Below, piece after piece: positions 40,650-56,019 of a stretch of 64,000 nt of DNA; the first letter of the stretch is position 1, and each line of letters begins with the position of its first letter. The stretch comes from an uncultured Alphaproteobacteria bacterium (GTDB lineage: Bacteria > Pseudomonadota > Alphaproteobacteria > Rhodobacterales > Rhodobacteraceae): contig CAWHWS010000002.1 in NCBI GenBank assembly GCA_963833115.1, forward strand, positions 368,173 to 432,172, read 5' to 3'. The notes under the pieces are model-generated. The model worked only from the letters and a program-made list of their open reading frames with translations, was not told the origin of the DNA and did not search any database. The translations under genes and the position numbers were made by a program.

Positions 40650-41270
40650 ATGGCCGGGACCGCGGCGCAGCCCGATCGCGACGAGGTCTTGATCGCGGAG
40701 ATGGGCCGGGCCCCCTCGGCGGTCGTCGCCGCCGTCTCGAAGGTCCTGATGCGGGAGGGGTATGGCGGCACCGTCCAGTTCACCCACGCCCAGATGGGTG
40801 AGATCCCGGCCTGGCAGGAGGACGACCCGGCCTCGCCCGACGAGCGGGCCGTGGGCGTGACGGTCTTCGTGGCGGTCGCGCTGCTGTTCCTGGCCTTCAT
40901 CGACCATCACGAGGTCGCCATCCAGACGCTCTTCATCATCGCCGTGCGCACCCGGCTGTCGGTGCTGCGGGGCGGGCCCATCGGCATCTTGATCGCCCGG
41001 TCCAACCCGCTCCGGCGCGGCATGATCCCCGTGCCGGACCTGCTCCAGATCCTGCCCGGCTTCGTCCACCTCATTCCGCCGATCCTCCTCTTCTCGGCGG
41101 CGGGGTCGACGCTCCACGGGATCGCGATCATCCTCTACGCCATCGCCCCCGTCATCCGCGTGACCGACCTCGGCATCCGCCTCGTCGACGAGGACGTGAT
41201 CGAGCCGGCCGACGCCTTCGGCATGACCGACCGTCAGAAGCTCTTCGGCGCGCGGATACCGCTGGCGCTC
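40650..41270 (+). pseudogene. Fused ProX/ProW-type (betaine/TMAO ABC transporter) remnant, truncated by element copy B
   Basis: Binding-protein start (EVLIAEM..AVSKVLMREGYG) joined to permease core (IRVTDLGIRLVDEDVIEPADAFGMTDRQKLFG..IPLAL), ending exactly at the element end. Confidence 0.75.
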
Positions 41271-41645
41271 GGCCTCGTCGCGCGAGGCCTGCCTGGGAGG
41301 CGCCTCGGGGCTTCAGCGGCATGGCCGGGCGGCATGTCCGAGCCCGCGCCCACCCGCCACCGCACCCTGAACTGGTCCGCCTACGACGCGTCGCCGCGTG
41401 AGCGCGGGTCGCTGGCGGTCCGGTTCGACCCGGCATGACCTGGTATGCGAGGCCGCCGGGCAAGCGCGGCCGGCCGCAGACCTTTCCGGGACGCGGCGAT
41501 CCAGGCGTGCCCGACGATCGAGGTCCTCTTCGGGCCGGTCGTCATCGCCGCCTCACCGCCCCGAGCACCCCGTCACGCGGCCCGTCGGCCGATCCCCATG
41601 GGGAAAGGGAAAGTCCGGCCTCCAGGCGCGTCAAGCGACAGCGCC
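41271..41645 (+). mobile_element. IS5-family (IS903-type) miniature element, copy B
   Basis: Residual MSEPAPTRHRTLNWSAYD..RGSLAVRFDP / TWYARPPGKRGRPQTF / DAAIQAC..VLFG, then C-terminal PVTRPVG; ends GGCCTCGTCGCGCG and CAAGCGACAGCGCC. Confidence 0.85.
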
Positions 41646-41844: not shown

Positions 41845-42630
41845 CTACCTGACCCCCAGCGCCTCGTCCGCCGGGGCCGCGGCGTCGGCCGACGCCCCTC
41901 CCCAGAGGTCGGCGCGCGCCCTGTCGAGGTCCGCCGCCGTGGTGATCTTGTAGTTCCGCTCGGACCCCTGGACCATCCGGACCGCCATGCCGGCCTCTCG
42001 GGCGACCGCGACGTCGTCCGCGCCGCTGCCGTCATGAGCCGCATGGGCCGCGCGGATCAGCTCGAACGCGAAGCCTTGCGGCGTCTGTGCCCGCCAGAGG
42101 CCGCCGCGCGGGACCGACCCGTCCGCCCAGCCGCCCTTGGCGGACCAGATCGCGTCGATCACCGGCAGCCCCGCGCAGGCGCCGTCGGCCTCCTGGAGCG
42201 CCGAGAGCACGCCTTCGATCACCCAGCGCGGCACGAACGGACGCGCCGCGTCGTGGATCAGGACGAGGTCGGGTCGATGGGCGCGCAGCGCCTCGAGCCC
42301 TCGGCGCACCGACAGGGCGCGGGTCGCGCCGCCCGCGACCGGCTCCAGCGCGCGCGCATCGACGAGCCCGTCGATCGAGCGCGCGCAGAGCACGGCGTCG
42401 TCGGGATGGATCACCGGCAGGACGAACCGCACGGCGTCGACGGCGAGGAACGCCTCGATCGAGCGGCGCAGGGCGCAGACGCCGTCGAGGGGGATGTACT
42501 GCTTCGGGACCTCCCCGCCGAGACGTCGTCCCCGGCCGGCGGCCACGAGCAATGTCGCGACGGAGGGCGGGCGTCCCGGCGCGGGGCTCGGCACGGGGCT
42601 CGGCGCGGGGAGCGCGCGGGGCCTAGTCAA
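41845..42630 (-). CDS. ispD: Stand-alone IspD-family (MEP/polyol-phosphate) cytidylyltransferase
   Basis: AAGRGRRLGGEVPKQY, LIHDAARPF, RAQTPQGF, NYKITT; no IspF domain follows. Confidence 0.82.
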   Translation of the reverse strand: MTRPRALPAPSPVPSPAPGRPPSVATLLVAAGRGRRLGGEVPKQYIPLDGVCALRRSIEAFLAVDAVRFVLPVIHPDDAVLCARSIDGLVDARALEPVAGGATRALSVRRGLEALRAHRPDLVLIHDAARPFVPRWVIEGVLSALQEADGACAGLPVIDAIWSAKGGWADGSVPRGGLWRAQTPQGFAFELIRAAHAAHDGSGADDVAVAREAGMAVRMVQGSERNYKITTAADLDRARADLWGGASADAAAPADEALGVR

Positions 42631-43228
42631 CGGACTGGATGGGCCGGGCGCTGCCGGACCGCTGGCCGGACGGGCGCGCGTGCGGCGGCCGGAAGAGCTG
42701 CGGCGCGAACCAGTCCGGCTCCTCGCCGGCGAAGAGGTCGAGGAAGCCGATCGCCCGGGACGGATCCTCCTCCACGTTCTCGCGAAAGCTCCACCAGGTC
42801 CGCAGGTCCCGGACCGATGGCGCGACGCGCTGCATCCCGTCGAAATCGGCCGAGATCACCAGCCCCCGGACATCGAGGCAGAACGCGACGTAGAGGTGCC
42901 CCTCGGGCCAGAACTGCGCGGGGTCGGCCGCGTCCCCGGGCCCCCGGACGCCGAGCCGGGCCGGCATTCCCACGATCAAGGCGCGCAGCATGAGACCGGC
43001 CGCGAACCCCACATAGGCGCGCTTGTCCCCGATGCTGACGGGCTTCTGCGCCTGAAAATCGGCGAGCCAGGCGGTGAACACGCCGGCGAGCGCCTCGCGG
43101 TCCACGGCGAAGCGATGCCCGGTCTCGGCCTCGATGCGCGCGACCTCGTCCTCGAACGCCCGGACGAACCATCGCAGGCGCTGCGCGGACTTCCGGAACG
43201 GCGTCTCTGGGGCGATCGGCGTCGTCAT
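42623..43228 (-). CDS. Hypothetical protein (201 aa)
   Basis: Good ORF coupled to neighbours; WPEGHLYVAFCL and TWWSFRENVEEDP look conserved; family not recognised. Confidence 0.7.
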   Translation of the reverse strand: MTTPIAPETPFRKSAQRLRWFVRAFEDEVARIEAETGHRFAVDREALAGVFTAWLADFQAQKPVSIGDKRAYVGFAAGLMLRALIVGMPARLGVRGPGDAADPAQFWPEGHLYVAFCLDVRGLVISADFDGMQRVAPSVRDLRTWWSFRENVEEDPSRAIGFLDLFAGEEPDWFAPQLFRPPHARPSGQRSGSARPIQSVD

Positions 43229-43237
43229 CGCGCACCG

Positions 43238-43912
43238 CTATAGATGGTCGGCCAGGGCCTGCAAATAGCGGGCCAGCCCCGCGGCGTCCTCCATCCGGTC
43301 CGGCACGCCGTCCCGCGTGGCCGCCACGAGCGCCGACGAAAGGCCGAGGATCGTCTCCTCCTCGGCCATCCCCGGCGCCCTCGCCGCGAGGAGCCAGAGG
43401 GCGATGGCGATCAGCGCCTGGTCGATCCGGGCCTGTTCGACCCCCCGGTCGGCATCGGCCAGTCCGGGCCTACGGGCGATGATCGCAGACGTGCGGATGT
43501 CGGCGATGAGGCGGGCGGCGCGCTCGGCCGGAGCCCGGCCCGTGAGCGGCCGCGTCGACAATCGTCCCGCGAGCAGCGTCTCGCTCATGAAATCCCCGTG
43601 TCGTCCGCCGGGCAGGTGCTCCCACGCGTAGACGACCACCGTCGCCAGCGTCTCCGGCGCGGCGGCGCGATCCGCCAGCGTGTCGGCGGCCGCACGCACG
43701 GCGCCCGGGTCGATCGGCGCCGCCTTGAGACGCCGTCCGACGGAGTGGACGGCCCGGAGACCCGCTCGGAACCCATCACGGATGGGCTCGGGCAGGAGGG
43801 CGACCGCCGGCTCGATGGTCTCCTCGGTCGCATCGGCCAGCGAGGAGACGCCCCGGAGGGCATCACGGAGCGGCATCTGCAGCGTCGAGAAGAGGTGGGG
43901 CGCCGATCGCAT
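43238..43912 (-). CDS. Hypothetical helical protein (224 aa)
   Basis: ORF in operon between pfkB and the 201-aa gene; family not recognised. Confidence 0.65.
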   Translation of the reverse strand: MRSAPHLFSTLQMPLRDALRGVSSLADATEETIEPAVALLPEPIRDGFRAGLRAVHSVGRRLKAAPIDPGAVRAAADTLADRAAAPETLATVVVYAWEHLPGGRHGDFMSETLLAGRLSTRPLTGRAPAERAARLIADIRTSAIIARRPGLADADRGVEQARIDQALIAIALWLLAARAPGMAEEETILGLSSALVAATRDGVPDRMEDAAGLARYLQALADHL

Positions 43913-43941
43913 GTCGCACTCCGAGGCGGATGACCGAGAGA

Positions 43942-44886
43942 CTATCCCCGATGCGGGGTCGTTGCCATGAAATCCAGCGTCGCCTCGAGCGAGACGACCC
44001 CCGCCTGCGAGCCCAGCCCGGTGGCGTTCTGGGCCGAGGCCGCCTGCCCCAGTCGCAGGCAGTCCGCCATCCGGCGGCCCAGATGCAGGCCGGTGGCGAA
44101 GCCGGCGTTGAAGCAGTCGCCGCAGCCGCAGGTGCACAGCACGTCCACGTCGAAGGCGGGCGAGTCGATCCGCGCGCCCGAGCGGTCGCGCAGCATCGCC
44201 CCCTGCGCCCCGAGCGTCAGGATCACGGCGCCGGCCCCGAGGTCCAGCAGGAAGGCCGCGATGTCGTCGAGATCCGTCAGCCCCGACAGCGCCATCGCCT
44301 CCTCCTCGGAGGGCATGAAGTAATCGGTGTTCGGCAGCAGCGACCGGACCAGGTCCAGGTCGGCGGCGGTAGAGGCGAAGACGTCGAGCGTGGTCGTGAC
44401 GCCCCGGGATCGCGCCTCGGCCAGCACCTCGGCGGTGCGACCCGCGTCCATCCGGTCCATCAGCCCCACGCCGCCGACATGCAGGATGCGCGTGTCCAGC
44501 ACGCTCTCCAACGCGGCGTCGTCCACCCAGAAGCCCGCCGTCGCGCCGCGCTTGTGCAGCGCCGGGCGCGCGCCGTCCGGGCGCGTGGTCACGATGCTCG
44601 AGGAGGTCGAGAAGCCCGGGCAGCGCTGCATGTGCCGCGTGTCCACGCCGAAATCGCCCAGCCGGCGCAGCACCCAGTCGCCCATCAGGTCCTCGCCCAC
44701 CCCGCCGACCGCCTGCACGCTGAGGCCGTGCCTGGCTGCGACGATGGCGGCCGATCCGGCCGCGCCGGACACCGCGAGCGCGAAATCCTCCACGAAATGG
44801 GTGCCGCCGCCGGCCGGTATCTCGGTCACCGGGCGGCACAGCGCGTCGAACGTGTAGAACCCCATCGAGGTGTAGTCGAAGGTCAT
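43942..44886 (-). CDS. PfkB/ribokinase-family carbohydrate kinase
   Basis: GAAGSAAIVAAR, FMPSEEEA, ILTLGAQG, TCGCGDCFNAGF anion-hole motif. Confidence 0.92.
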   Translation of the reverse strand: MTFDYTSMGFYTFDALCRPVTEIPAGGGTHFVEDFALAVSGAAGSAAIVAARHGLSVQAVGGVGEDLMGDWVLRRLGDFGVDTRHMQRCPGFSTSSSIVTTRPDGARPALHKRGATAGFWVDDAALESVLDTRILHVGGVGLMDRMDAGRTAEVLAEARSRGVTTTLDVFASTAADLDLVRSLLPNTDYFMPSEEEAMALSGLTDLDDIAAFLLDLGAGAVILTLGAQGAMLRDRSGARIDSPAFDVDVLCTCGCGDCFNAGFATGLHLGRRMADCLRLGQAASAQNATGLGSQAGVVSLEATLDFMATTPHRG

Positions 44887-44893
44887 GGCATCC

Positions 44894-45943
44894 TCAGCGT
44901 AGCCGCTCGCCGCTGGCATGGTCGAAGAGGTAGAGCCGGGCGGGATCGAAGCGCACGCTCTGCGTGCCGCCCAGCTCCGCGCGGTAGGCGCGGTCGGCCT
45001 TGATCTCGACCAGCGTCTCTCCGGTCCGCAGCGTGAGGAACGTCATGTCGCCGGTGGGCTCCAGCCCGTAGATCTCGCCCGTCAGGTCGCCCCCGCCCGG
45101 CGATACCGCGCAGTCCTCGGGGCGCACGCCGAGCGTGACCGGCCCCGCGTGCCGGCTCGGCAGTCCCGCGACCTCGACCCCCGGCGCGGAGAAGCGACCG
45201 CCCTCCAGCCGCCCCTCGATCAGGTTCATGGGCGGCGATCCGATGAAGTTCGCGACGAACGTGTTGGCCGGATCGGTGTAGATGTCGTCGGGCGTGCCGA
45301 TCTGCTGTATCCGCCCGGCGCGCATGACGACGATCCGGTCCGCCAGGGTCATCGCCTCGATCTGGTCGTGGGTGACGTAGACGGTGGTGATGCGCAGCTC
45401 GCGCTGGATGTGCTTGATCTGCACCCGCATCGCCTGGCGCAGCTTGGCGTCCAGGTTCGAGAGCGGCTCGTCCATCAGGAAGACCTGCGGCTGGCGCACG
45501 ATGGCGCGGGCCAACGCCGCGCGCTGGCGCTGCCCGCCCGAGAGCGCGCCGGGCTTGCGATCCAGGTAGTCGGCCAGCTCCACCAGCCCGGCGGCGCGGC
45601 GCACCTGCGCGTCCTGCTCGGCGCGCGGCACGCCGCGCATCCTGAGCGGGAAGCGGATGTTCTCGTAGACGGTCATGTTCGGGTAGAGCGCGTAGCCCTG
45701 GAACACCATCGCCACGTCGCGGTCGCGCGGATCGACCTCGTTCATCAGCTCGCCGTCCATGCGGATCTCGCCCGCCGTCGGCTCCTCCAGGCCCGCGATC
45801 ATCCGCATCGTCGTGGTCTTGCCGCAGCCCGAAGGGCCGAGGAAGACGACGAACTCCTCGTCGGCGATGTCCATGTCGACGTCCCGCACGCCGTGGACGT
45901 CGCCCCAGCTCTTCTGGATGCCCGAAAGCTCGATCCGCGCCAT
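44894..45943 (-). CDS. CUT1 carbohydrate ABC transporter ATP-binding protein
   Basis: GPSGCGKTT, LSGGQRQR, FLMDEPLSNLDAKLR. Confidence 0.96.
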   Translation of the reverse strand: MARIELSGIQKSWGDVHGVRDVDMDIADEEFVVFLGPSGCGKTTTMRMIAGLEEPTAGEIRMDGELMNEVDPRDRDVAMVFQGYALYPNMTVYENIRFPLRMRGVPRAEQDAQVRRAAGLVELADYLDRKPGALSGGQRQRAALARAIVRQPQVFLMDEPLSNLDAKLRQAMRVQIKHIQRELRITTVYVTHDQIEAMTLADRIVVMRAGRIQQIGTPDDIYTDPANTFVANFIGSPPMNLIEGRLEGGRFSAPGVEVAGLPSRHAGPVTLGVRPEDCAVSPGGGDLTGEIYGLEPTGDMTFLTLRTGETLVEIKADRAYRAELGGTQSVRFDPARLYLFDHASGERLR

Positions 45944-45945
45944 CG

Positions 45946-46788
45946 CTACCCCTTCACCGCGCCCATGGTCAGCCCGCGGCTCAGGTGCTTCTGGATCGCG
46001 ACCACCACGAGGAACACCGGCAGGAACGCGAGGAAGGCGACCAGCGCGATGGCGTTGTAGATCACGCCGTCCGAGCCGCCGGTGAAGTTCGCGAGCGCGA
46101 CCGACATCGTGTAGGCGTCCGGCGTCGAGGCGATCAGCAGCGTGAACAGGAACTCGTTGATCGCGAAGATCATCGCGATGACCGCCGCGGTGATGATGCC
46201 GGGCAGGATCGCCGGCACGATGATCTCCCACAGGATGCGCAGGTCCGACGCGCCGTCGGTGCGCGCCGCGTCCTCGAGCTCGTGCGGGATGTCGAGCATG
46301 TAGGACCGGATGATCCACGTCACGAAGGAGAGGTTGATGGCGGCGTAGATCAGCATCAGGGCCCAGATCGTGTCGAGGAGGCCCATGTTGCGGAACAGGA
46401 AGAAGATCGGGATCGCCACGATCGCCGGCGCCATCATCCGCGTCGACAGGATGTAGAACCCGATGTCGTCGCGCCCCCGGTACTCGTAGCGCGCCAGGGA
46501 GTAGGCCGCCGGGATCGCGAGGACGAGGTCGATCACCACCGATCCGAGGACCGCCAGGACCGAGTTGCGCAGGTACTTCGCCATCGGCCAGTCCGACCAG
46601 ATCATGTGCCAGGCGTCGAGCGAGAGCGTGGGCAGGTAGATCGGGCGCGGGGTGATGATCTCGGTCCGCGGGCGCAGGCCGATCGAGAGGAACCACAGCA
46701 CCGGCACCAGGCAGAACAGCGCCCATCCTCCCAGGATCAGGTAGCGCAGCGCGCGCGACTCGCCGCGCCGGCGTCTGGCGGACGCCAT
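45946..46788 (-). CDS. Carbohydrate ABC permease (MalG-like)
   Basis: ELEDAARTDGA EAA motif, six TM segments. Confidence 0.95.
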   Translation of the reverse strand: MASARRRRGESRALRYLILGGWALFCLVPVLWFLSIGLRPRTEIITPRPIYLPTLSLDAWHMIWSDWPMAKYLRNSVLAVLGSVVIDLVLAIPAAYSLARYEYRGRDDIGFYILSTRMMAPAIVAIPIFFLFRNMGLLDTIWALMLIYAAINLSFVTWIIRSYMLDIPHELEDAARTDGASDLRILWEIIVPAILPGIITAAVIAMIFAINEFLFTLLIASTPDAYTMSVALANFTGGSDGVIYNAIALVAFLAFLPVFLVVVAIQKHLSRGLTMGAVKG

Positions 46789-46791
46789 GCC

Positions 46792-47709
46792 CTAGTCCCT
46801 CGACGAGACGAAGGCGCGCTTCACCACGAGCTGCGCGACGAGGATGGTGATGACCAGCATGACGACCGAGGCCGCCGAGGCGTAGCCGAAGTCGAAGAAC
46901 TTGAAGCCCGTCCGGTAGATGAAGTAGCTGATCGTCTCGGTCCCGAAGGCCGGGCCGCCCTTGGTGATGATGAAGACGTTGGCGAACATCGTCGTGATGT
47001 CGATCCCCCGCAGGATCAGGGCGACCGCGATCACCGGCTTCATCAGGGGCAGCGACACGTTCCAGAAGATCGCGAACCAGGACGCGCCGTCGAGCCGGGC
47101 GGCCTCCTCCACCTCCTCGTCCTGGCCCTGCAGGGCGGCGACGAAGATGATGAAGAGGAACGGCGTCCACTGCCAGACGTCCGCCGCGATCAGCAGCGCC
47201 CGGCTGCCCCAGATCGAGGACTGGATCGCGAGGTTCCCATCGATCAGCCCGAGCCGCATGAGCACGTCGGCGAAGACGCGCCCGTCCAGCACCGCCAGCT
47301 TGTAGATGAAGGCGACCGCCGAGGGCATGAACAGCATCGGCACCAGGAACGCGATCCGCCAGCCGCGCACCCACGGATCGCGGTAGGCGTGATAGGCCAG
47401 CGTCAGCGCGATCAGGCACTGCAACGTGAGGGCGATCGAGCCGATCACGAACGTGTTCCAGAGCGCGCCCCAGAACTGCGCGTCGCCCATCAGCTTGGCG
47501 TAGTTGGCGAAGCCGACCGGGTTCCATGGCCCGAACTTCACCGCGTGGAAGCTCTGCACGATGGCGTAGACGCCGGGGTAGAGCGTGATCCCGAAGAGGT
47601 AGATCACCGCCGGCGCGACCAGCAGGTAGGGGAACGCCGCCCGCATCCGCCTTGAGCGCCGCCGCCGGACGGGGCGCGCGGCCGCGCCGGGTGCCGCGAG
47701 GTCGCTCAC
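46792..47709 (-). CDS. Carbohydrate ABC permease (MalF-like)
   Basis: WQWTPF, EEAARLDGA, GGPAFGTET. Confidence 0.95.
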   Translation of the reverse strand: MSDLAAPGAAARPVRRRRSRRMRAAFPYLLVAPAVIYLFGITLYPGVYAIVQSFHAVKFGPWNPVGFANYAKLMGDAQFWGALWNTFVIGSIALTLQCLIALTLAYHAYRDPWVRGWRIAFLVPMLFMPSAVAFIYKLAVLDGRVFADVLMRLGLIDGNLAIQSSIWGSRALLIAADVWQWTPFLFIIFVAALQGQDEEVEEAARLDGASWFAIFWNVSLPLMKPVIAVALILRGIDITTMFANVFIITKGGPAFGTETISYFIYRTGFKFFDFGYASAASVVMLVITILVAQLVVKRAFVSSRD

Positions 47710-47725
47710 GCGGCGGCGCTCCGGC

Positions 47726-48466
47726 TCACTCGGCCATCCCCGCGATCTCGCCGGCGACGGCCTCGCCCAGGTCGCGGTTGCCCTGCACCAGGAGGTGGAT
47801 GCCGTCCGGGCCCACGTCCTCCTTGCCCACGACCGTCGCCGCGTCGAAGAAGGCCGCCCCCGCCGCCTTGGCGATGGCCTCGTAGACCTCCGGCAGCGCC
47901 TCGATCTTCTCCTGCGAGCCGGCGAATATCTCCGCCGCGCCGGGGTCGATCTCGTCGCCGAGCGGCGGCGGGCTGATGACGAGCACTCGGGGCGGCTCCT
48001 CCTCGTAGGTGTACCAGCCGAGCCCGCTGCCCCGCTGCACGATGTCGATGAGCTCGCCCATGCCCAGCCCGATCTCCAGCGGGGAGCGGTCGAGATAGGT
48101 CTTGGTGTCGTTGGTCCCGAGCATGATCACCACGACGTCCAGCGGCGCGTGGCTCATCAGGGCGGAGTCGAGGTACTCCGCCCCGTTCATGAGGCCCGGC
48201 GCCGATCCGTCCTCCACGTTGGTCGTGCGCCCGCTCAGGCCCTCGGTCACGACGTGGTAGCCCTCGCCCAGCGCCGCCTGGAGGATCCGGGGCCAGCGGT
48301 CGGCCTCGGCGTGGCGCTCGGTCGGGGTGATCGGGTCCTTGGGCACCCAGCCCCAGGTGATGGAATCGCCGAAGACCATGACGTTGACGGGGTCCTCCGC
48401 CTCCTGGGCGGCGGCGGGGACGGCGAGCGCCGCGGCGAGCGCGGCCGTGAGGATCGTGCGGGTCAT
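47726..48466 (-). CDS. Secreted SGNH/GDSL hydrolase
   Basis: Signal peptide, FGDSITWG, EGLSGRTT, MLGTNDTK, DGIH catalytic motifs. Confidence 0.92.
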   Translation of the reverse strand: MTRTILTAALAAALAVPAAAQEAEDPVNVMVFGDSITWGWVPKDPITPTERHAEADRWPRILQAALGEGYHVVTEGLSGRTTNVEDGSAPGLMNGAEYLDSALMSHAPLDVVVIMLGTNDTKTYLDRSPLEIGLGMGELIDIVQRGSGLGWYTYEEEPPRVLVISPPPLGDEIDPGAAEIFAGSQEKIEALPEVYEAIAKAAGAAFFDAATVVGKEDVGPDGIHLLVQGNRDLGEAVAGEIAGMAE

Positions 48467-48521
48467 CGGAACCTCCGGGGGCGGGGGGACGGACGGCGCG
48501 CCATGCGCCGCCCGTTCGGAT

Positions 48522-50081
48522 TCAGAACGGCAGGTCCTTGCCCTCGCCGACATAGAGCCCCGGCGCGGCCTGGGCGTACTCGACCGGATCGGCGCCCTGG
48601 TAGAACCCGTTCTGCGACATGATCTCCCGCACCGCCGCGGCGGCGTTGTCGAGCGCCTCCTGCCCGGTGATCTGCCCGACCACGGCGCGGTTGATCTCGT
48701 TGCCGATGGCCTGCTCGATCGGGAACGCGCCCGGCAGCCGCGGCGAGCACCAGGCGTGCTCGAGGCTGTCGGACCACACCTTCGCCGGCTGGCTGACCTG
48801 CTGCAGGTTGGGGTTGGTCAGGACCGAGCGGTAGCCCGGCGCCACGCCGTTGGCGTTGGCCTCGTTCATCGCCATGATCGACGCGGTCGTGAGGAACGCC
48901 AGCATCAGGAACGCCCCCTCGGGGTTCTGCGCGCTGGCCGCGACGCAGGAGGTGGAGCCCGCGATGTTGGGCGGCGCGAAGCGGCCCCCCTCGATGCGGG
49001 GCTCGTAGATGGTCGTGAACTGATCGACGATCTGGCTCTGGTCGGGGCGCATCGCCTGCGTGCCCGAGTCCTGCCAGGAGATGTTGGTCGCGACCTGCCC
49101 GCCGAGCCACGCGGCGCGGTTCTCGGGCCAGCCGGCACCGGCGAAGCCCTCGTTGGCATTGGGCGCCAGCGCCAGGATGATCTCCATCCCCTTCATGCCC
49201 TCGGGCCCGTTGAAGATCGGCTCCCAGCCCTCGTCGAAGAGCATCATGCCGGCCTGCGCGGCGATGTGCTCCCACGTGTAGGTCGACCAGAACCCGGGCG
49301 CGGCCATCATGCCCACGCCCGACACGCCCGGCCGCACGCGGTTCAGCTCGCCGGAGACCCGGATCAGCTCGTCATAGGTCGGGATCGTGGAGACCCGGTC
49401 GACCTCCCCGCCCAGGACCTCGCGCATGAGGTCGGTGCGGACGTGGACCATCTGCACGTCGCAGTCGAACGGAATGCCGTACATCTTGCCGTTGAAGAAG
49501 CCGTAGTTGAGCCGGTACGTATCGTAGAAGTCGTCGAGCGGCAGGTTCCACTTCTCGGCGTAGTCGTCGAGCTCGGCGAGGAAGCCGGGCGCCGCGAAAT
49601 CCCCCATCCAGGGCGAGAAGAACTGCAGCGCGTCGAAGCTCGCGTTGCCCGAGATGAACTCCGTCAGCGCCTTGTCGTAGAAGCTGTCGTCGGGGATCGG
49701 CACCAGCTCGACGGTGATGCCGGAGAGCTCCTCGAACGGGGTCAGGCCCTCCGCGGCGGATTCCGCGTCGGCCGCGCCGATGGCGAAGCGCACGGTGGTG
49801 CCGCCCAGCTCGGAGCGGACCTTCTCCCAGTCGACGGTGCGGATCCAGTCCCTCGCCGGATCCCACATCCTGTCCTCGTCGGTCAGCCCGTAGAGCTCGC
49901 GGTAGTCGGCGCGCACGTACTGCTCGATCGAGATGCGGTCGAGGACGCTCTGCGGATCGGGAAGCTGCGACTGCGCGAACGCGGGCATCGCCAGCCCGCC
50001 GCCGGCGCCGGCCGCGATCAGGCCGCCGGCCGAGCTTCGCTGCAGGAACGACCGTCTGGATAGGTGTCCGCCGATCTTCAT
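48522..50081 (-). CDS. Tat-exported carbohydrate ABC substrate-binding protein
   Basis: SRRSFL twin-arginine signal; GIPFDCD; heads the CUT1 operon. Confidence 0.88.
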   Translation of the reverse strand: MKIGGHLSRRSFLQRSSAGGLIAAGAGGGLAMPAFAQSQLPDPQSVLDRISIEQYVRADYRELYGLTDEDRMWDPARDWIRTVDWEKVRSELGGTTVRFAIGAADAESAAEGLTPFEELSGITVELVPIPDDSFYDKALTEFISGNASFDALQFFSPWMGDFAAPGFLAELDDYAEKWNLPLDDFYDTYRLNYGFFNGKMYGIPFDCDVQMVHVRTDLMREVLGGEVDRVSTIPTYDELIRVSGELNRVRPGVSGVGMMAAPGFWSTYTWEHIAAQAGMMLFDEGWEPIFNGPEGMKGMEIILALAPNANEGFAGAGWPENRAAWLGGQVATNISWQDSGTQAMRPDQSQIVDQFTTIYEPRIEGGRFAPPNIAGSTSCVAASAQNPEGAFLMLAFLTTASIMAMNEANANGVAPGYRSVLTNPNLQQVSQPAKVWSDSLEHAWCSPRLPGAFPIEQAIGNEINRAVVGQITGQEALDNAAAAVREIMSQNGFYQGADPVEYAQAAPGLYVGEGKDLPF

Positions 50082-50332: not shown

Positions 50333-51664
50333 ATGTCATCCAACGTCGCCCTGACCGGGCTCGCCCGCGACCTCGCGGCCCGTGCGGATGCCGGACGGCC
50401 GGTGCGGATCGGCCTCGTCGGCTCGGGCGAGATGGGGACCGACATCGTCACCCGCGCCGGGCTGATGGACGGGGTCGAGGTCGCCGCCATCGCCGACATC
50501 GACCCCGCCGCCGCGCATCGCGCGGTGGAGATCGCGCGGCGCGCGGGGGGGTGCAGCCGCGACGCGCCGGACGCGGGCGCCGTGAACGCCGCGATCGAGG
50601 CCGGGCTGACCGCCGTGACGACCGCCGACGCGATGCTGGACTCCGGCCTGATCGACGTGGTGATCGACGCGACCGGCGTGCCCGCGGTCGGCGCCGAGAT
50701 CGGGCTCGCGGCGATGGAGCGGGGCAAGCACCTGGTGATGATGAACGTCGAGGCCGACGTGACCATCGGCGTCTATCTCGCGGCCGAGGCCGAGCGCCTG
50801 GGCGTGGTCTACTCCCTCGGCGCGGGCGACGAGCCGTCCTCCTGCATGGAGCTGATCGAGTTCGCCTCCGCGATGGGCCATCGCATCGTGTGTGCGGGCA
50901 AGGGCAAGAACAATCCCCTGAACTTCGACGCCCTGCCGGACGACTACGCCGACGAGGCCGCCGCCCGGCACATGAACCCCCGGATGCTGGTGGAGTTCGT
51001 GGACGGATCGAAGACGATGGTGGAGATGGTCGCCATCGCCAACGCGACCGGGCTGGTCCCCGACGTGGACGGCATGCACGGCCCCGCCGCCGGGCCGAAG
51101 GACCTGTCCCGCGTGCTGGTCCCAGAGCGGGACGGCGGCATCCTGTCGGGCGCCGGCCGGGTGGACTACTCGGTGGGCCAGGGCCTCGCGCCCGGCGTCT
51201 TCGTCGTGATCGAGGCGGAGCATCCTCGCATCCGCGAGCGCCTGCGCGACCTCAAGATGGGCGACGGGCCCTACTTCACGTTCATCCGCCCCTACCACCT
51301 GACCTCCCTGGAGGTTCCCCTGACCTGCGCGCGCGCGGTGCTCCACGGCCGCGCGGACATGGTGCCGATGGCGCGGCCGGTGGCCGAGGTCGCGGCCGTC
51401 GCCAAGCGCGACCTCGCCCCCGGCGACACGCTCGACCTGCTCGGCGAGTACACCTACCGCGCCTGGGCGATGGAGGCCGGCCGCGCGCGCGGCCTCGGCG
51501 CGCGGCCGGCGGGGCTCCTGCCCGGCTGCACCGTGACGGCGGCGATCGCGAAGGGCGAGCTCCTGACGGACCGCAACACCGCCCTGCCCCCGGGCTCGCG
51601 CATCGCCGCCCTGCGCGCCCGCCAGGACGCCATGGTGCACGGCCGGGAGCCCGCCCATGCCTGA
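50333..51664 (+). CDS. Type II DXP reductoisomerase (DRL/DXR-II; NAD-binding homoserine-dehydrogenase-like domain plus C-terminal SAF domain)
   Basis: [84 protein letters not shown]: long stretches match Brucella abortus DRL as I recall it, including the GDE, KGK and KTMVE metal/substrate residues. Confidence 0.85.
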
Positions 51665-52667
51665 CGGCCCCGACGCCAACCTGCCCTACGCGGTCCGCGC
51701 CTACGCGCCCGAGCGGCTGGTGGAGGCCCTGCGCCGGATGCGCCTCATCCGCGCCTTCGAGGAGGGCGCCGAGGAGAGCTACACGCGCGGCCTGATCCAC
51801 GGGACCATGCACCTGAGCATCGGCCAGGAGGCGTCGGCGGTCGGCTCGTGCATGGCGCTGACGGACGAGGACAAGATCACCTCGACCCATCGGGGCCACG
51901 GGCACTGCATCGCCAAGGGCGCCGACCTCGGCCGGATGTTCGCGGAGTTCTTCGGCAAGGAGACGGGCTATTGCAGGGGCCGGGGCGGCTCGATGCACAT
52001 CGCCGACGTGGCCAAGGGCAATCTCGGCGCCAACGGCATCGTCGGCGGCGGCCTGCCCATCGCGGTCGGGGCCGCGCTCTCGGCCAGGCGGCTCGGGACG
52101 GGGGCGGTCACGGTCTGCTTCTTCGGCGACGGGGCGGGCAACGAGGGCGCGTTCCACGAGGCGCTGAACATGGCGTCGATCTGGCGGCTGCCGGTCGTCT
52201 TCGTCTGCGAGAACAACCTCTACGGCATGTCCACGTCGACCGAGCGTTCGACCGCGGTGCGCCATGTCGCCGACCGGGCCGCCGCGTACTCGATGCCGGG
52301 CGTCACCGTCGACGGCAACGACTTCTCGGCCGTGACCGAGGCCGTCGACGCCGCCGTCGCCCGCGCGCGGGCCGGCGACGGGCCGAGCCTGGTCGAGAAC
52401 CTGACCTATCGCTGGCGCGGGCACTCCAAGTCCGACCGCAACCGCTACCGAACCAAGGAGGAGATCGCCGAATGGCAGGGGCGCGACCCCATCGCGCGGA
52501 TGACGGACATGCTGCGCGCCCACGGGATCGTCGATGACGACGCCGTGGCCGGGATCGAGGCCGAGGTGGCCGAGACGGTCGCCGCCGCCATCGCCTTCGC
52601 GAAGGACAGCCCCGCGCCCGACACCGCCGAGGCCGCGCGCGACGTCGACACCGGGGCGGCCGCGTGA
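51657..52667 (+). CDS. acoA: TPP-dependent dehydrogenase E1 alpha (AcoA-like)
   Basis: [36 protein letters not shown] motif, YRWRGHS. Confidence 0.88.
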
Positions 52668-53674
52668 ACGCGCCCGCCGGGGCGATGCTCCGCGAGCTGA
52701 GCTATGCCGAGGCGATCCGCGAGGCGATGGACATCGCGCTCGGCGAGGACCCGCGCGTGATCCTGATGGGCGAGGACATCGGCGTCTACGGCGGCGCCTT
52801 CGGCGTGACCGGCGACCTGGTGGCCAAGTACGGCGAGGAGCGGGTGATGGACACGCCCATCTCCGAGCTGGGCGGCGCCGGGGTGGCGGTGGGCGCGGCG
52901 CTCACGGGGCTGCGCCCGATCTTCGAGTTCCAGTTCTCCGACTTCGCGGCGCTGGCGATGGAGCAGATCGTCAACCAGGCCGCCAAGCTGCGCTACATGC
53001 TGGGCGGCGCGGTGTCCGTGCCCCTGGTGATGCGCTTTCCGGCCGGGTCCGGGACCGGCGCGGCCGCGCAGCATTCCCAGAGCCTCGAGGCGTGGTTCGG
53101 CCACGTGCCGGGCCTGAAGGTGGTGCAGCCCTCCACCCCCGAGGACGCCAAGGGCCTCCTGCTGGCCGCGCTGGACGATCCCGACCCGGTGATGATCTTC
53201 GAGCACAAGATCCTCTACAAGATGCGCGGCCCCGTGCCCGAGGGGCGCTACGTGACGCCCATCGGCCGCGCGGCGGTGCGGCGCGAGGGGCGGGATCTGA
53301 CGATCGTGGCCACCGCGATCATGGTGCACAAGGCGCTGGAGGCCGCCGGCACGCTGGCCGAGGACGGCATCGAGGCCGAGGTGATCGACCTGCGCACCGT
53401 GCGCCCGATGGACCGGGAGACGGTGCTGGCCTCGGTCCGTCGCACGGGCCGTCTGCTCGTGGTCTACGAGGGGGTCAAGACGCTGGGCGTGGGCGCCGAG
53501 GTCAGCGCGATGGTCGCCGAGAGCGACGCGTTCGACTTCCTCGACGCGCCCATCGTGCGGCTCGGCGGGGCCGAGAGCCCGATCCCCTACAATCCCGAGC
53601 TCGAGCGCGCGGTCGTCCCGCAGGTGCCGGACATCCTCGAGGCCGCGCGGGCCTTGGCACGGGGCCGCGTCTGA
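52664..53674 (+). CDS. acoB: TPP-dependent dehydrogenase E1 beta (AcoB-like)
   Basis: [37 protein letters not shown]. Confidence 0.88.
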
Positions 53675-55026
53675 TGCCGACCGAGGTCATCATGCCCAAG
53701 GTCGACATGGACATGGCGACCGGCCGCATCGTGGCCTGGCATTGCGAGGACGGGGCGCCGGTGGAGAAGGGCATGCCCCTCTTCGACATCGAGACCGACA
53801 AGGCCGCGATGGAGATCGAGGCGCCCGCGAGCGGGCTGCTCCGCCACCGCGTCCCAGAAGGGACCGAGCGGCCCATCGGCGCGCCGGTCGCCTGGCTCTA
53901 CGCGCCGGACGAGCCGGTCGGAGACGCGCCGCCGGATGGCGAGGGGGCCGCGGCCGGCCCCGGACCGTCGCGGAGCGGCGCCCGGCCCGGCGGCGCGCCG
54001 GCCGACGATGCCCTGGCGGATGCGGGGACGGCCGCGCCCCCGGTCGCGGACGGGCCGACCTCGTCCCATCCGCCGGACCGCCCGCGCGCCACGCCCAGAG
54101 CCAGGCGCCGCGCCCGGGAGGCGGGGATCGACCTCGCGGGGCTGCCTGGCACGGGCCCGAGGGGGCGCGTCCAGGCGCGCGACGTCCCCGGCGCCCGGCA
54201 CGAGGATCCCGAGGCGACCGAAGGCCGGAGGTCCCGGGCGCGCGCGCCCGCGGCCCCCGCCGGGACGCCGGCCGCGGACGGTCCCCTGCGCGTCCTCCGC
54301 AGCGGCGCCGGCACCGGCACGCCCGTCGTCCTGCTGCACGGGTTCGCCTCCGACGCCGCCATCTGGACGCCCCTGGAGGAGCACCTCGACCGCCCCCCCC
54401 TGATCCGGATCGAGCTGCCGGGCCATGGCGGCTCGCCGCGCCGCGCCCCGGCGACCTTCGCGGCCCTGGCCAAGGCGCTGCGCGAGGCCTTCGACGACCT
54501 GCACCTCGAGGCCGCGCACCTGGTCGGGCACAGCCTGGGCGGCGCCCTCGCCCTCGCGATCGCCGACACCCGTCCCAGGTGCGTCCGCAGCGTCAGCCTG
54601 ATCGCGCCCGCCGGGCTGGGCCCGCAGGTCAACGGCGAGGCGCTGTCGGGCATCTGCCGCGCCGCCCGGGCCGAGAGCCTCGCGCCCTGGCTGCGCGTGC
54701 TGGTCGCCGACGAGCGGATCGTGACCGACGGCTACGCCCGGGCCGCCATGGCCGCACGGCGCGATCCGGACCTGCGCGCGGCGCAGGCCGCCATGGCGGA
54801 CGCGCTCTTCCCCGACGGCGTCCAGGCCTTCGACCTCCGCGCCGCCCTGCGCCGGCTGGAGGTGCCGTCCCGCATCGTCTGGGGGAAACGCGACCGGATC
54901 CTGCCATGGCGGCAGGCCCTGTGCGCGGGCGGCGGCACCGCGCTGCACCTCTTCGAGGGGATCGGGCACATGCCGCAGATCGAGGCGCCGGAGGCGATCG
55001 GCCGCCTCCTCGCGGCCGGATTCTGA
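53674..55026 (+). CDS. acoC: AcoC-type E2: lipoyl domain, subunit-binding domain and alpha/beta-hydrolase acetyltransferase
   Basis: [10 protein letters not shown] lipoyl Lys, [36 protein letters not shown]. Confidence 0.85.
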
Positions 55027-55038
55027 GGCGGACGGCCC

Positions 55039-56019
55039 GTGGACCAGGACATCGCCCTGGGGGCCCGGGGCATCTCCGGCCGCCACCGGTCGCTGCGCGT
55101 GCGGGCCGCGTGGCTCTACCATGTCGAGGGGATGACCCAGACCGAGGTGGCGGCGACCCTGGGCGTGAGCCGCGTCATGATCACGCGCCTGCTGGCCGAA
55201 GCCCGCGCGCGGGGCGAGGTCGTCATCCGCGTGCGCTCGGAGATCGCCCCGATCGTGGAGCTGGAACGCGACCTCGAGGGGCGCTTCGCCCTGCGCCGCG
55301 CGGTCGTCGCGCCCTTCGAGGCCATGGGGGGCGATCCGGTCCGGTCGATCGCCGCGGCCGCCGGCGCGCACGTCTCGGGGCTGATGGCCAACAACCTCAC
55401 GATCGGCGTCGGCTGGGGGCGCACGCTGCAGGCGATGCTGCCGCACCTCGAGGGCCGGGCGCTGAACGGCGTGCGCGTCGTGTCCCTGCTGGGCGGGATC
55501 GCGCAGGCGCGCCGCTTCAATCCGGCCGAGTTCGCCTGGCAGTTCGCGGAGCTGTTCGACGCCGAGGGCTACCTCATCCCCGCGCCCGCGATCGTCGACT
55601 CGCCCAGGACGCGCCATGCTCTGCTGGAGCACTGCGGGCTCGACCAGATATTCGAGATGGCGGCGACCTGCGACGTCGCTCTGCTGTCCTGCGGCGGGAT
55701 CGACGCGCTGACGACCTCCTACAGGGTCGGCTACGTCTCGGAGGCCGAGCGGCAGTCGATGATCCGGGCGGGCGTCGTCGGCGACGTGCTCTACAACTTC
55801 CTCGATGCCGAAGGGCGGCTCGTCGATCATCCGGTGAACGAGCGCGTGATCGGCATGTCGCCCGCCCGCCTCGGCCGCGTCGAGAACAAGATCCTCGTCT
55901 CCGGCGGACGGGAGAAGCTCGACATCCTGCGCGGCGCCCTGAAGTCGGTGCGGCCGCAGACCCTGATCACCGATGAGGTCACCGGCCGATCGCTGATGGA
56001 CGGACCGGACGGCGACTGA
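55039..56019 (+). CDS. SorC/DeoR-family sugar-phosphate-binding transcriptional regulator
   Basis: AAWLYHVEGMTQTEVAATLGVSRVMITRLL HTH; GVGWGRT; AGVVGDVL. Confidence 0.92.
   Translation: MDQDIALGARGISGRHRSLRVRAAWLYHVEGMTQTEVAATLGVSRVMITRLLAEARARGEVVIRVRSEIAPIVELERDLEGRFALRRAVVAPFEAMGGDPVRSIAAAAGAHVSGLMANNLTIGVGWGRTLQAMLPHLEGRALNGVRVVSLLGGIAQARRFNPAEFAWQFAELFDAEGYLIPAPAIVDSPRTRHALLEHCGLDQIFEMAATCDVALLSCGGIDALTTSYRVGYVSEAERQSMIRAGVVGDVLYNFLDAEGRLVDHPVNERVIGMSPARLGRVENKILVSGGREKLDILRGALKSVRPQTLITDEVTGRSLMDGPDGD

Follow-up and report, generated by a model that had tools for sequence, protein, structure and literature searches.

A stretch of 64,000 nucleotides from an uncultured alphaproteobacterium of the family Rhodobacteraceae (assembly GCA_963833115.1, contig CAWHWS010000002.1, positions 368,173 to 432,172 of the forward strand; hereafter the window, meaning the whole stretch) carries two adjacent genes, here termed P1 and P2, between a gene for a PfkB-family sugar/polyol kinase and the gene for IspD, the methylerythritol phosphate (MEP) cytidylyltransferase. 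P1 (43238..43912, minus strand) encodes 224 amino acids (aa) and P2 (42623..43228, minus strand) 201 aa; both were characterised from their translations, family alignments and AlphaFold2 (AF2) models. Our analysis revealed that P1 and P2 are a conserved pair of genes, joined physically in some species, and that this pair belongs to a gene cluster with DXR-II, the two E1 subunits alpha and beta (E1ab), an E2 component, a SorC-family regulator and a polyol importer. The ATG of P1 at 43912 has a GGAG just 5′ of it and lies 29 nucleotides (nt) past the PfkB stop, and since the P1 frame is open upstream into PfkB (43238..44839), this ATG is the sensible start. P2 begins 9 nt past the P1 stop, and its own stop overlaps the listed TTG start of IspD by 8 nt. 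A first-pass annotation, made from the letters of the window without database searches, had already described P1 and P2 as tightly packed in an operon, and these gaps and coordinates confirm it; both reading frames are genuine genes, far beyond chance.

The same annotation had recognised no family for either protein, which held in Pfam, NCBIfam and PADLOC. At E≤0.1 neither P1 nor P2 matched any Pfam or NCBIfam model, whether of the MEP pathway or of another curated enzyme family, and no Pfam family recurred consistently at E≤10 over 120 P2 and 29 P1 family members. As to HAD motifs I-IV, neither protein matched a HAD model of Pfam or NCBIfam. PADLOC gave 0 matches for P1, P2 and one P1-P2 fusion, the ESM Atlas yielded weak leads below 0.9 for P2 (DUF3806, DUF6278, YwmA) and none for P1, and a sequence profile search of the PDB found nothing for P2 and a single match at E 0.1 for P1. 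Homologues of P2 numbered 509 at E≤0.001 among 1212 candidates, and its profile matched 207 representative clusters (E≤0.001) in a set of 1.84 billion proteins; the family is small. For P1 at least 29 homologues were found by a word search that scored the 8000 candidates sharing most words. All named relatives of either protein are alphaproteobacterial and are called hypothetical protein. P1 and P2 represent two new protein families, and they are not supported as paralogues of each other (hhalign probability 0.3% between the P2 alignment A1 and the P1 alignment A2).

Conservation was read from four alignments: A1, also used as the P2 profile, with 120 sequences (the query and 119 of 120 listed matches); a deep P2 alignment, A4, with 54 sequences (the query and 53 of 150 listed representatives); A2 with 29 P1 members; and A3 with 10 fusions of P2 to a HAD-like domain. 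P2, which is present in one copy in the genome of the window, is a six-helix protein with the signatures RRLRWF, GLML, FWPEG, WWSFREN and F.G..P.W in the deep alignment. The blocks WPEGHLYVAFCL and TWWSFRENV, singled out in the first-pass annotation as aromatic and Cys-rich, do lie in P2 and are the most strongly conserved of the whole family; the aromatic half of that description is borne out by the composition of the protein (6 W, 15 F, 2 Y), the Cys half is not, as P2 has a single Cys. Residues that are nearly invariant in the deep family are mostly aromatic or structural (F21, F51, W54, G78, W107, P108, G110, W145, G168, P171 and W173). Cys117-x3-Arg121 was considered as a candidate active site and rejected, since the deep alignment shows conservation of neither residue. 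P1 consists of an N-terminal helical hairpin with the conserved sequence MPLRDALRG...ADATE..LEPA..LLPEP, followed by a C-terminal helical bundle (residues about 77-222) with a conserved HL at its end. Identities to the proteins of the window are 29-47% for P1 and 50-62% for P2, which makes P1 the faster diverging of the two; adaptor subunits often evolve faster.

The pairing of the two genes was examined in 119 unique P2 loci, which were obtained from two scans of a genome collection and de-duplicated. A hidden Markov model (HMM) of P1 placed the P1 gene directly upstream of P2 in 102 of them, and the Rhizobiales loci that it missed have in the same place an unassigned open reading frame (ORF) of 250-290 aa with an N-terminal motif related to P1 and a similar C-terminal ending. 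From the P1 stop to the projected P2 start there are 0-30 nt in 93 of the 102 loci (median 17 nt). Four proteins (P0158, P0159, P0162 and P0184) are natural P1-P2 fusions. They are among 28 long proteins (330 aa or more) with a P2 domain, of which 18 others join P2 to a HAD-like domain and the remaining six carry another, uncharacterised C-terminal domain. For this third fusion type a label of ROK-like was considered and dropped, as it went back to a single match of E 1.1e-3 that was gone at E≤0.001. A locus search with a single fusion protein, P0161, as query returned no locus.

The HAD-like domain is attached to the C-terminus of P2, and the gene order P1, P2, HAD agrees with both fusion types. 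Of ten HAD fusions that were aligned, eight have lost the DxD nucleophile motif, while the cap segment PMTYVAE.TGRICP.HF is conserved, a pattern that would fit a role in binding and not in catalysis. In Rhizobiales clusters P2 adjoins stand-alone HAD genes that are intact and of the sugar/polyol-phosphate phosphatase type. The NCBIfam models nearest to these HAD partners are 6-phosphogluconate phosphatase, the beta-phosphoglucomutase family and the hexitol phosphatase HxpB, all scoring below their equivalog cut-offs. By tblastn no HAD-like partner was found in the genome of the window or in the first 80 loci.

A check on co-occurrence with DXR-II had been proposed in the first-pass annotation, and the association turned out to be strong. 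DXR-II is present in the same locus in 89 of the 119 unique P2 loci, and it lies within 10 kb in 70 of the 82 that are well flanked (at least 8 kb on both sides), at a median distance of 6.4 kb from P2 and with 54-83% identity between the DXR-II proteins. None of the homologues in the 12 well-flanked loci that lack it carries a known unrelated function; 11 of the genomes were searched, and seven have DXR-II elsewhere. Of 300 other alphaproteobacterial genomes, sampled evenly, three have P2, and these are exactly the ones in which a DXR-II reaches 68% identity or more, 4-8 kb away from P2; a DXR-II copy of 60% without P2 occurs in one more genome, and about 70 have paralogues of roughly 40%. 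The converse scan, anchored on DXR-II, found at least 593 stretches in the genome collection, of which the best 80 were kept; 55 of these have 8 kb or more on either side. Among these 55 of the best 80, P2 was present in 36 of 46 loci with DXR-II and E1, namely in 18 of 20 that also have the solute-binding protein (SBP) of the cluster and in 18 of 26 with another importer, and in none of nine with a solitary DXR-II. Six of ten genomes whose DXR-II/E1 locus showed no P2 have it located elsewhere.

The importer and the kinase of the cluster can be exchanged. In Mesorhizobium, Shinella and Phyllobacterium (L214, L161 and L177) a glucitol-type phosphotransferase system (PTS) replaces the ABC importer and PfkB, and P2 is kept. 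As P2 persists despite this swap, it goes with the core of the cluster (DXR-II, E1ab, E2 and SorC) and not with one importer or kinase. The PTS of the Rhizobiales cluster consists of EII-GUT, EIIBC-GUT and an HPr-EI fusion, and the E2 found there is either a canonical 2-oxoacid-dehydrogenase component or of the AcoC type. The presence of a glucitol-type PTS in this version argues for a polyol as the substrate.

Several loci show the pair in other settings. Four genomes have P1-P2 and no DXR-II at E≤1e-20 (L045, L060, L064 and L133). The arrangement in L045 is P1-P2-IspD, and in L133 the pair lies behind a SorC regulator. L060 and L064 (1-14200) show a LysR regulator, two genes for type I phosphodiesterase/nucleotide pyrophosphatase and an SBP_bac_5/Opp-type ABC importer, followed by a P1-like gene, P2, a DeoR regulator, a PdxA-like dehydrogenase and an aldehyde dehydrogenase. 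Three Paracoccaceae genomes have P1-P2 apart from the DXR-II cluster, and in L074 and L080 (7080-9990) the pair stands directly after a three-domain thiamine-diphosphate enzyme of the acetolactate-synthase type. A literature search over titles and abstract openings found nothing on P1, P2, this cluster or the breakdown of methylerythritol. Passages of PMC3847144 present a phylogeny of DXR-II without gene neighbourhood, with 0 occurrences of "genomic context" and "transporter", and passages of PMC3424233 add nothing about P1 or P2.

In the window the cluster consists of two divergent operons. The plus-strand operon (50333..56019) encodes DXR-II/DRL (50333-51664; PF21135 DRL_cat, 226 bits), E1 alpha (51657-52667) and E1 beta (52664-53674), an AcoC-type E2 with lipoyl, E3-binding and alpha/beta-hydrolase domains (about 53692-55026) and the SorC-family regulator (55039-56019). 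The minus-strand operon starts with the SBP (48522-50081) and continues with a GDSL hydrolase (47726-48553), two permeases (46792-47709 and 45946-46788), a MalK-like ATPase (44894-45943), PfkB (43942..44919), P1, P2 and, as its last gene, IspD (41845..42630). The E1 subunits, the regulator and the genes from the SBP to the ATPase were assigned by Pfam. PfkB, immediately upstream of P1, matches PF00294 with 129.8 bits, scores below every NCBIfam equivalog cut-off and is present in 78 of the 119 P2 loci. IspD matches PF01128 with 183 bits and TIGR00453 with 186 bits (cut-off 181.3).

Some further features of this neighbourhood were recorded. The GDSL/SGNH hydrolase (47726-48553, minus strand), located between the SBP and the permeases, has a signal-like N-terminus and occurs in only three of 119 related loci; its rarity suggests that the substrate is acylated in some form in a small number of lineages. 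Across orders the importer is highly conserved: between the window (44894-50081) and loci L001-L080 the second permease is 84-94% and the SBP 71-86% identical, compared with 29-47% for P1, which fits horizontal spread of the cluster or a very strong constraint on the importer. An ORF on the plus strand between a LysR gene and IspD (40650-41438) matches BPD_transp_1 partially (profile positions 1-115 of 184) and may be the remnant of a permease. Antisense to DXR-II there is an open frame of 447 aa (50336-51679, minus strand) in DNA of about 72% G+C, with no Pfam match. This frame gives shadow tblastn matches in all related loci, at 30-54% identity and with internal stops, and is a trap for ORF-based annotation.

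IspD lies downstream of P2 in 11 of the 119 loci, from several orders, with spacings from an overlap of 32 nt to a gap of 145 nt. The IspD of the window is the only complete one of its genome, which also has a normal DXR-I. The other copy, ispDF, covers only positions 120-220 of the IspD model (the C-terminal half) and is fused to an intact-looking IspF; the ispDF gene (G000:C2:2158774-2159067; locus L082 1489-2292) abuts a divergent dus gene. Likewise, the IspD next to P2 is the only full-length one in four of five other such genomes tested, and in five genomes without IspD at P2 the enzyme is encoded in long, ispDF-like frames or, in one case, as a separate copy. Being the sole complete copy, the IspD at the end of the operon is the housekeeping enzyme. 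That IspD recurs behind PfkB-P1-P2 would fit a salvage of MEP into isoprenoids. The co-occurrence with ispD that the first-pass annotation proposed to look for is therefore weak, and the idea put forward there that P1 and P2 handle CDP-linked or cyclic methylerythritol receives no direct support, as the adjacent IspD is a housekeeping enzyme.

Predicted structures gave an indication of a possible fold. The AF2 models are confident, with pLDDT 85.9 and pTM 0.82 for P2 and pLDDT 83.8 and pTM 0.82 for P1. Foldseek, which had been proposed in the first-pass annotation and was run on these models, returned nothing at E≤0.001 in the PDB and BFVD. In an exhaustive VIA-align search the top match of P2 was Doc (3dd7_A, Z 9.6, root-mean-square deviation 2.7 Å, 116 of 123 residues), the next row followed at Z 6.2 (3.4 lower) and about 20 Fic domains stood within the top 34 at Z 4.2-6.0; the C-terminal bundle of P1 (77-222) also found Doc first (3dd7_A, Z 6.1, 109 aligned), with sigma-factor region 2 domains as other matches at Z about 5, all values at which, being below about 13, helical models may share a common arrangement. 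Fic and Doc proteins carry the catalytic motif HxFx(D/E)(G/A)N(G/K)R. Used as a regular expression, this motif was present in 27 control Fic/Doc segments (27 domains from 30 fetched loci) and in 0 of 120 sequences of A1, 0 of 29 of A2, 0 of 54 of A4 and 0 of 10 of A3. Comparison of A4, A1 and A2 with the 27 control domains by hhalign gave probabilities of 0.2-0.6%, and the Pfam Fic model PF02661 matched neither protein at E≤0.1, nor family members at E≤10. The inhibitory-helix motif of Fic proteins, [ST]xxxE[GN], was found in only four of 29 P1 members and is thus not conserved. P1 and P2 can at most be described as possibly having a Doc/Fic-like scaffold, a fold relation with moderate support from the models, and we do not file them in the Fic/Doc family.

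Taken together, the gene content of the cluster would be consistent with the following scheme. A branched polyol, most likely 2-C-methyl-D-erythritol, would be imported and phosphorylated by PfkB or by the glucitol-type PTS, and the resulting MEP would be converted to deoxyxylulose phosphate (DXP) and then to acetyl-CoA and glyceraldehyde-3-phosphate by an acetoin-dehydrogenase-like cleavage. P1 and P2 may be the two subunits of an undescribed, all-helical accessory pair, that is, a pseudo-enzyme-like complex with a Doc/Fic-like fold and no Fic/Doc active site. This complex would bind MEP or DXP as a phosphorylated intermediate and regulate the step concerned, such as the balance among kinase, HAD phosphatase, breakdown and IspD, and it would perform no chemistry on CDP- or cyclodiphosphate-methylerythritol. 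We give a probability of roughly 35% to this reading, in which P1-P2 acts at the phosphorylated-polyol step as a non-catalytic complex for binding or regulation. The first-pass annotation had seen in the two proteins the most likely carriers of new chemistry in the locus, a view that is not favoured by our results, as there is no catalytic motif, no match to an enzyme family, and the commonest fusion partner is a mostly degenerate HAD-like domain. Several observations weigh against our preferred interpretation. The mechanism, in which we place low confidence, is drawn from context, and no binding, regulatory or DNA-binding feature was seen in either protein. The role of P1-P2 is not strictly tied to DXR-II, given the four genomes that have the pair without it. 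The polar residues E109, S147, E150 and N151 of P2 are almost invariant and could form an active site or a ligand site, and the conservation of P2 is about that of some pathway enzymes. The stand-alone HAD partners are catalytically intact, so that P1-P2 may contribute to a genuine enzyme. Finally, proteins with a Fido fold that lack the canonical motif can be enzymes, as is the case for AvrB.

The last points lead to a tentative alternative, which is that P1-P2, alone or with the HAD partner, is a new enzyme of Fido-like fold that transfers a phosphoryl or nucleotidyl group to or from MEP, CDP-methylerythritol (CDP-ME) or methylerythritol cyclodiphosphate (MEcPP), or hydrolyses one of them. 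The idea of the first-pass annotation falls under this alternative. Its nearest structural matches are indeed phosphoryl and nucleotidyl transferases (Doc at Z 9.6, Fic domains at Z 4.2-6.0, including a CDP-bound Fic and AnkX), and the most conserved block of P2, FWPEG, would lie in the loop before the fourth long helix, about the place of the Fic/Doc motif as far as secondary structure indicates. However, the motif itself is found in no member, hhalign against the 27 Fic/Doc domains stays below 1%, and the deep family offers no invariant His, Cys or Asp as a catalytic candidate. P2 is fused or adjacent to HAD phosphatase-type domains, some of them intact, but most of the fused ones have lost the catalytic Asp. 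Similarly, 11 of 119 loci, from several orders, have IspD right behind P2, and the trio P1-P2-IspD is kept in a genome without DXR-II (L045); against this, 108 of the 119 loci have no IspD beside P2, and where it is present it is the housekeeping copy. The reconstructed pathway, moreover, does not need an extra step. A specific form of this idea, in which a new enzyme family on a Doc/Fic-like scaffold uses an FWPEG/WWSFREN site in place of the His motif and, joined by a HAD partner in some lineages, catalyses a novel transfer of a phosphoryl or cytidylyl group on methylerythritol phosphate, appears doubtful to us. If it were true, the reaction would decide between burning of the substrate via DXR-II and E1/E2 and its use in isoprenoid synthesis via IspD.

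That P2 accompanies DXR-II with E1 (36 of 46 loci) and never a solitary DXR-II (0 of nine, again among the best 80 of at least 593), that it is independent of the importer type, and that the surface residues of the family are rich in aromatics could also speak for a scaffold or assembly factor, which would tie DXR-II to E1/E2 for channelling or assemble the AcoC-type complex. Channelling would then pull the unfavourable oxidation of MEP to DXP. We consider this role unlikely, as it leaves unexplained both the fusions to HAD-like and other domains and the pair in the four genomes without DXR-II, and as P2 is found with the canonical as well as with the AcoC-type E2. As small neighbouring genes of which the second, P2, has a predicted fold like that of Doc, the pair might further recall a toxin-antitoxin or defence module of the Phd/Doc kind riding in the operon. 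This is highly improbable: the Doc motif is absent in all members, PADLOC gave 0 matches, the genes hold a fixed place in one metabolic cluster in more than 100 genomes of several orders, no DNA-binding antitoxin domain can be recognised in the upstream partner of 224 aa, which some species have fused to P2, and the genome of the window has a single copy.

The cluster of DXR-II and E1/E2 looks like an undescribed route in which the first steps of MEP isoprenoid synthesis are reversed in order to use a branched sugar alcohol. It is spread over many marine Rhodobacterales and soil Rhizobiales, the scan having counted at least 593 stretches with DXR-II, and P1 and P2 are its sole near-universal members without an assignable function, so that a reconstruction of the pathway is incomplete without them. 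Should P1-P2 control or convert MEP or DXP, it would provide a new handle on the flux into the MEP pathway, a target for drugs and engineering, and no earlier Fido-like proteins would be known as components of a catabolic operon. Should they turn out to be accessory binders only, two new families whose partners are defined (P1, the HAD-like domain and DXR-II/E1) would have gained a useful annotation.

Among known systems, the HAD-IA sugar/polyol-phosphate phosphatases of the beta-phosphoglucomutase family resemble the partner of P2 rather than P1 or P2 themselves, which have no HAD motifs; moreover, eight of ten fused HAD domains lack DxD, and the genome of the window lacks such a partner. Doc of the phage P1 Phd/Doc system (PDB 3DD7) and the related Fic proteins are similar in that the predicted six-helix core of P2 superposes on them and Doc is the best match of the P1 bundle, and Phd/Doc shares the two-gene arrangement with an upstream partner. 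P1 and P2 differ from Doc and Fic in lacking the motif, a Pfam Fic match, an hhalign probability of 1% or more and a Foldseek match, and from Phd/Doc in being fixed in a metabolic cluster and not mobile. The closest likeness of the surrounding genes is found in two enzyme systems, as the DXR-II of the cluster carries the same PF21135 DRL_cat domain (226 bits) as DRL/DXR-II of Brucella abortus, and its E1ab and AcoC-type E2 share the acetoin-dehydrogenase architecture of the acetoin-cleaving AcoABC.

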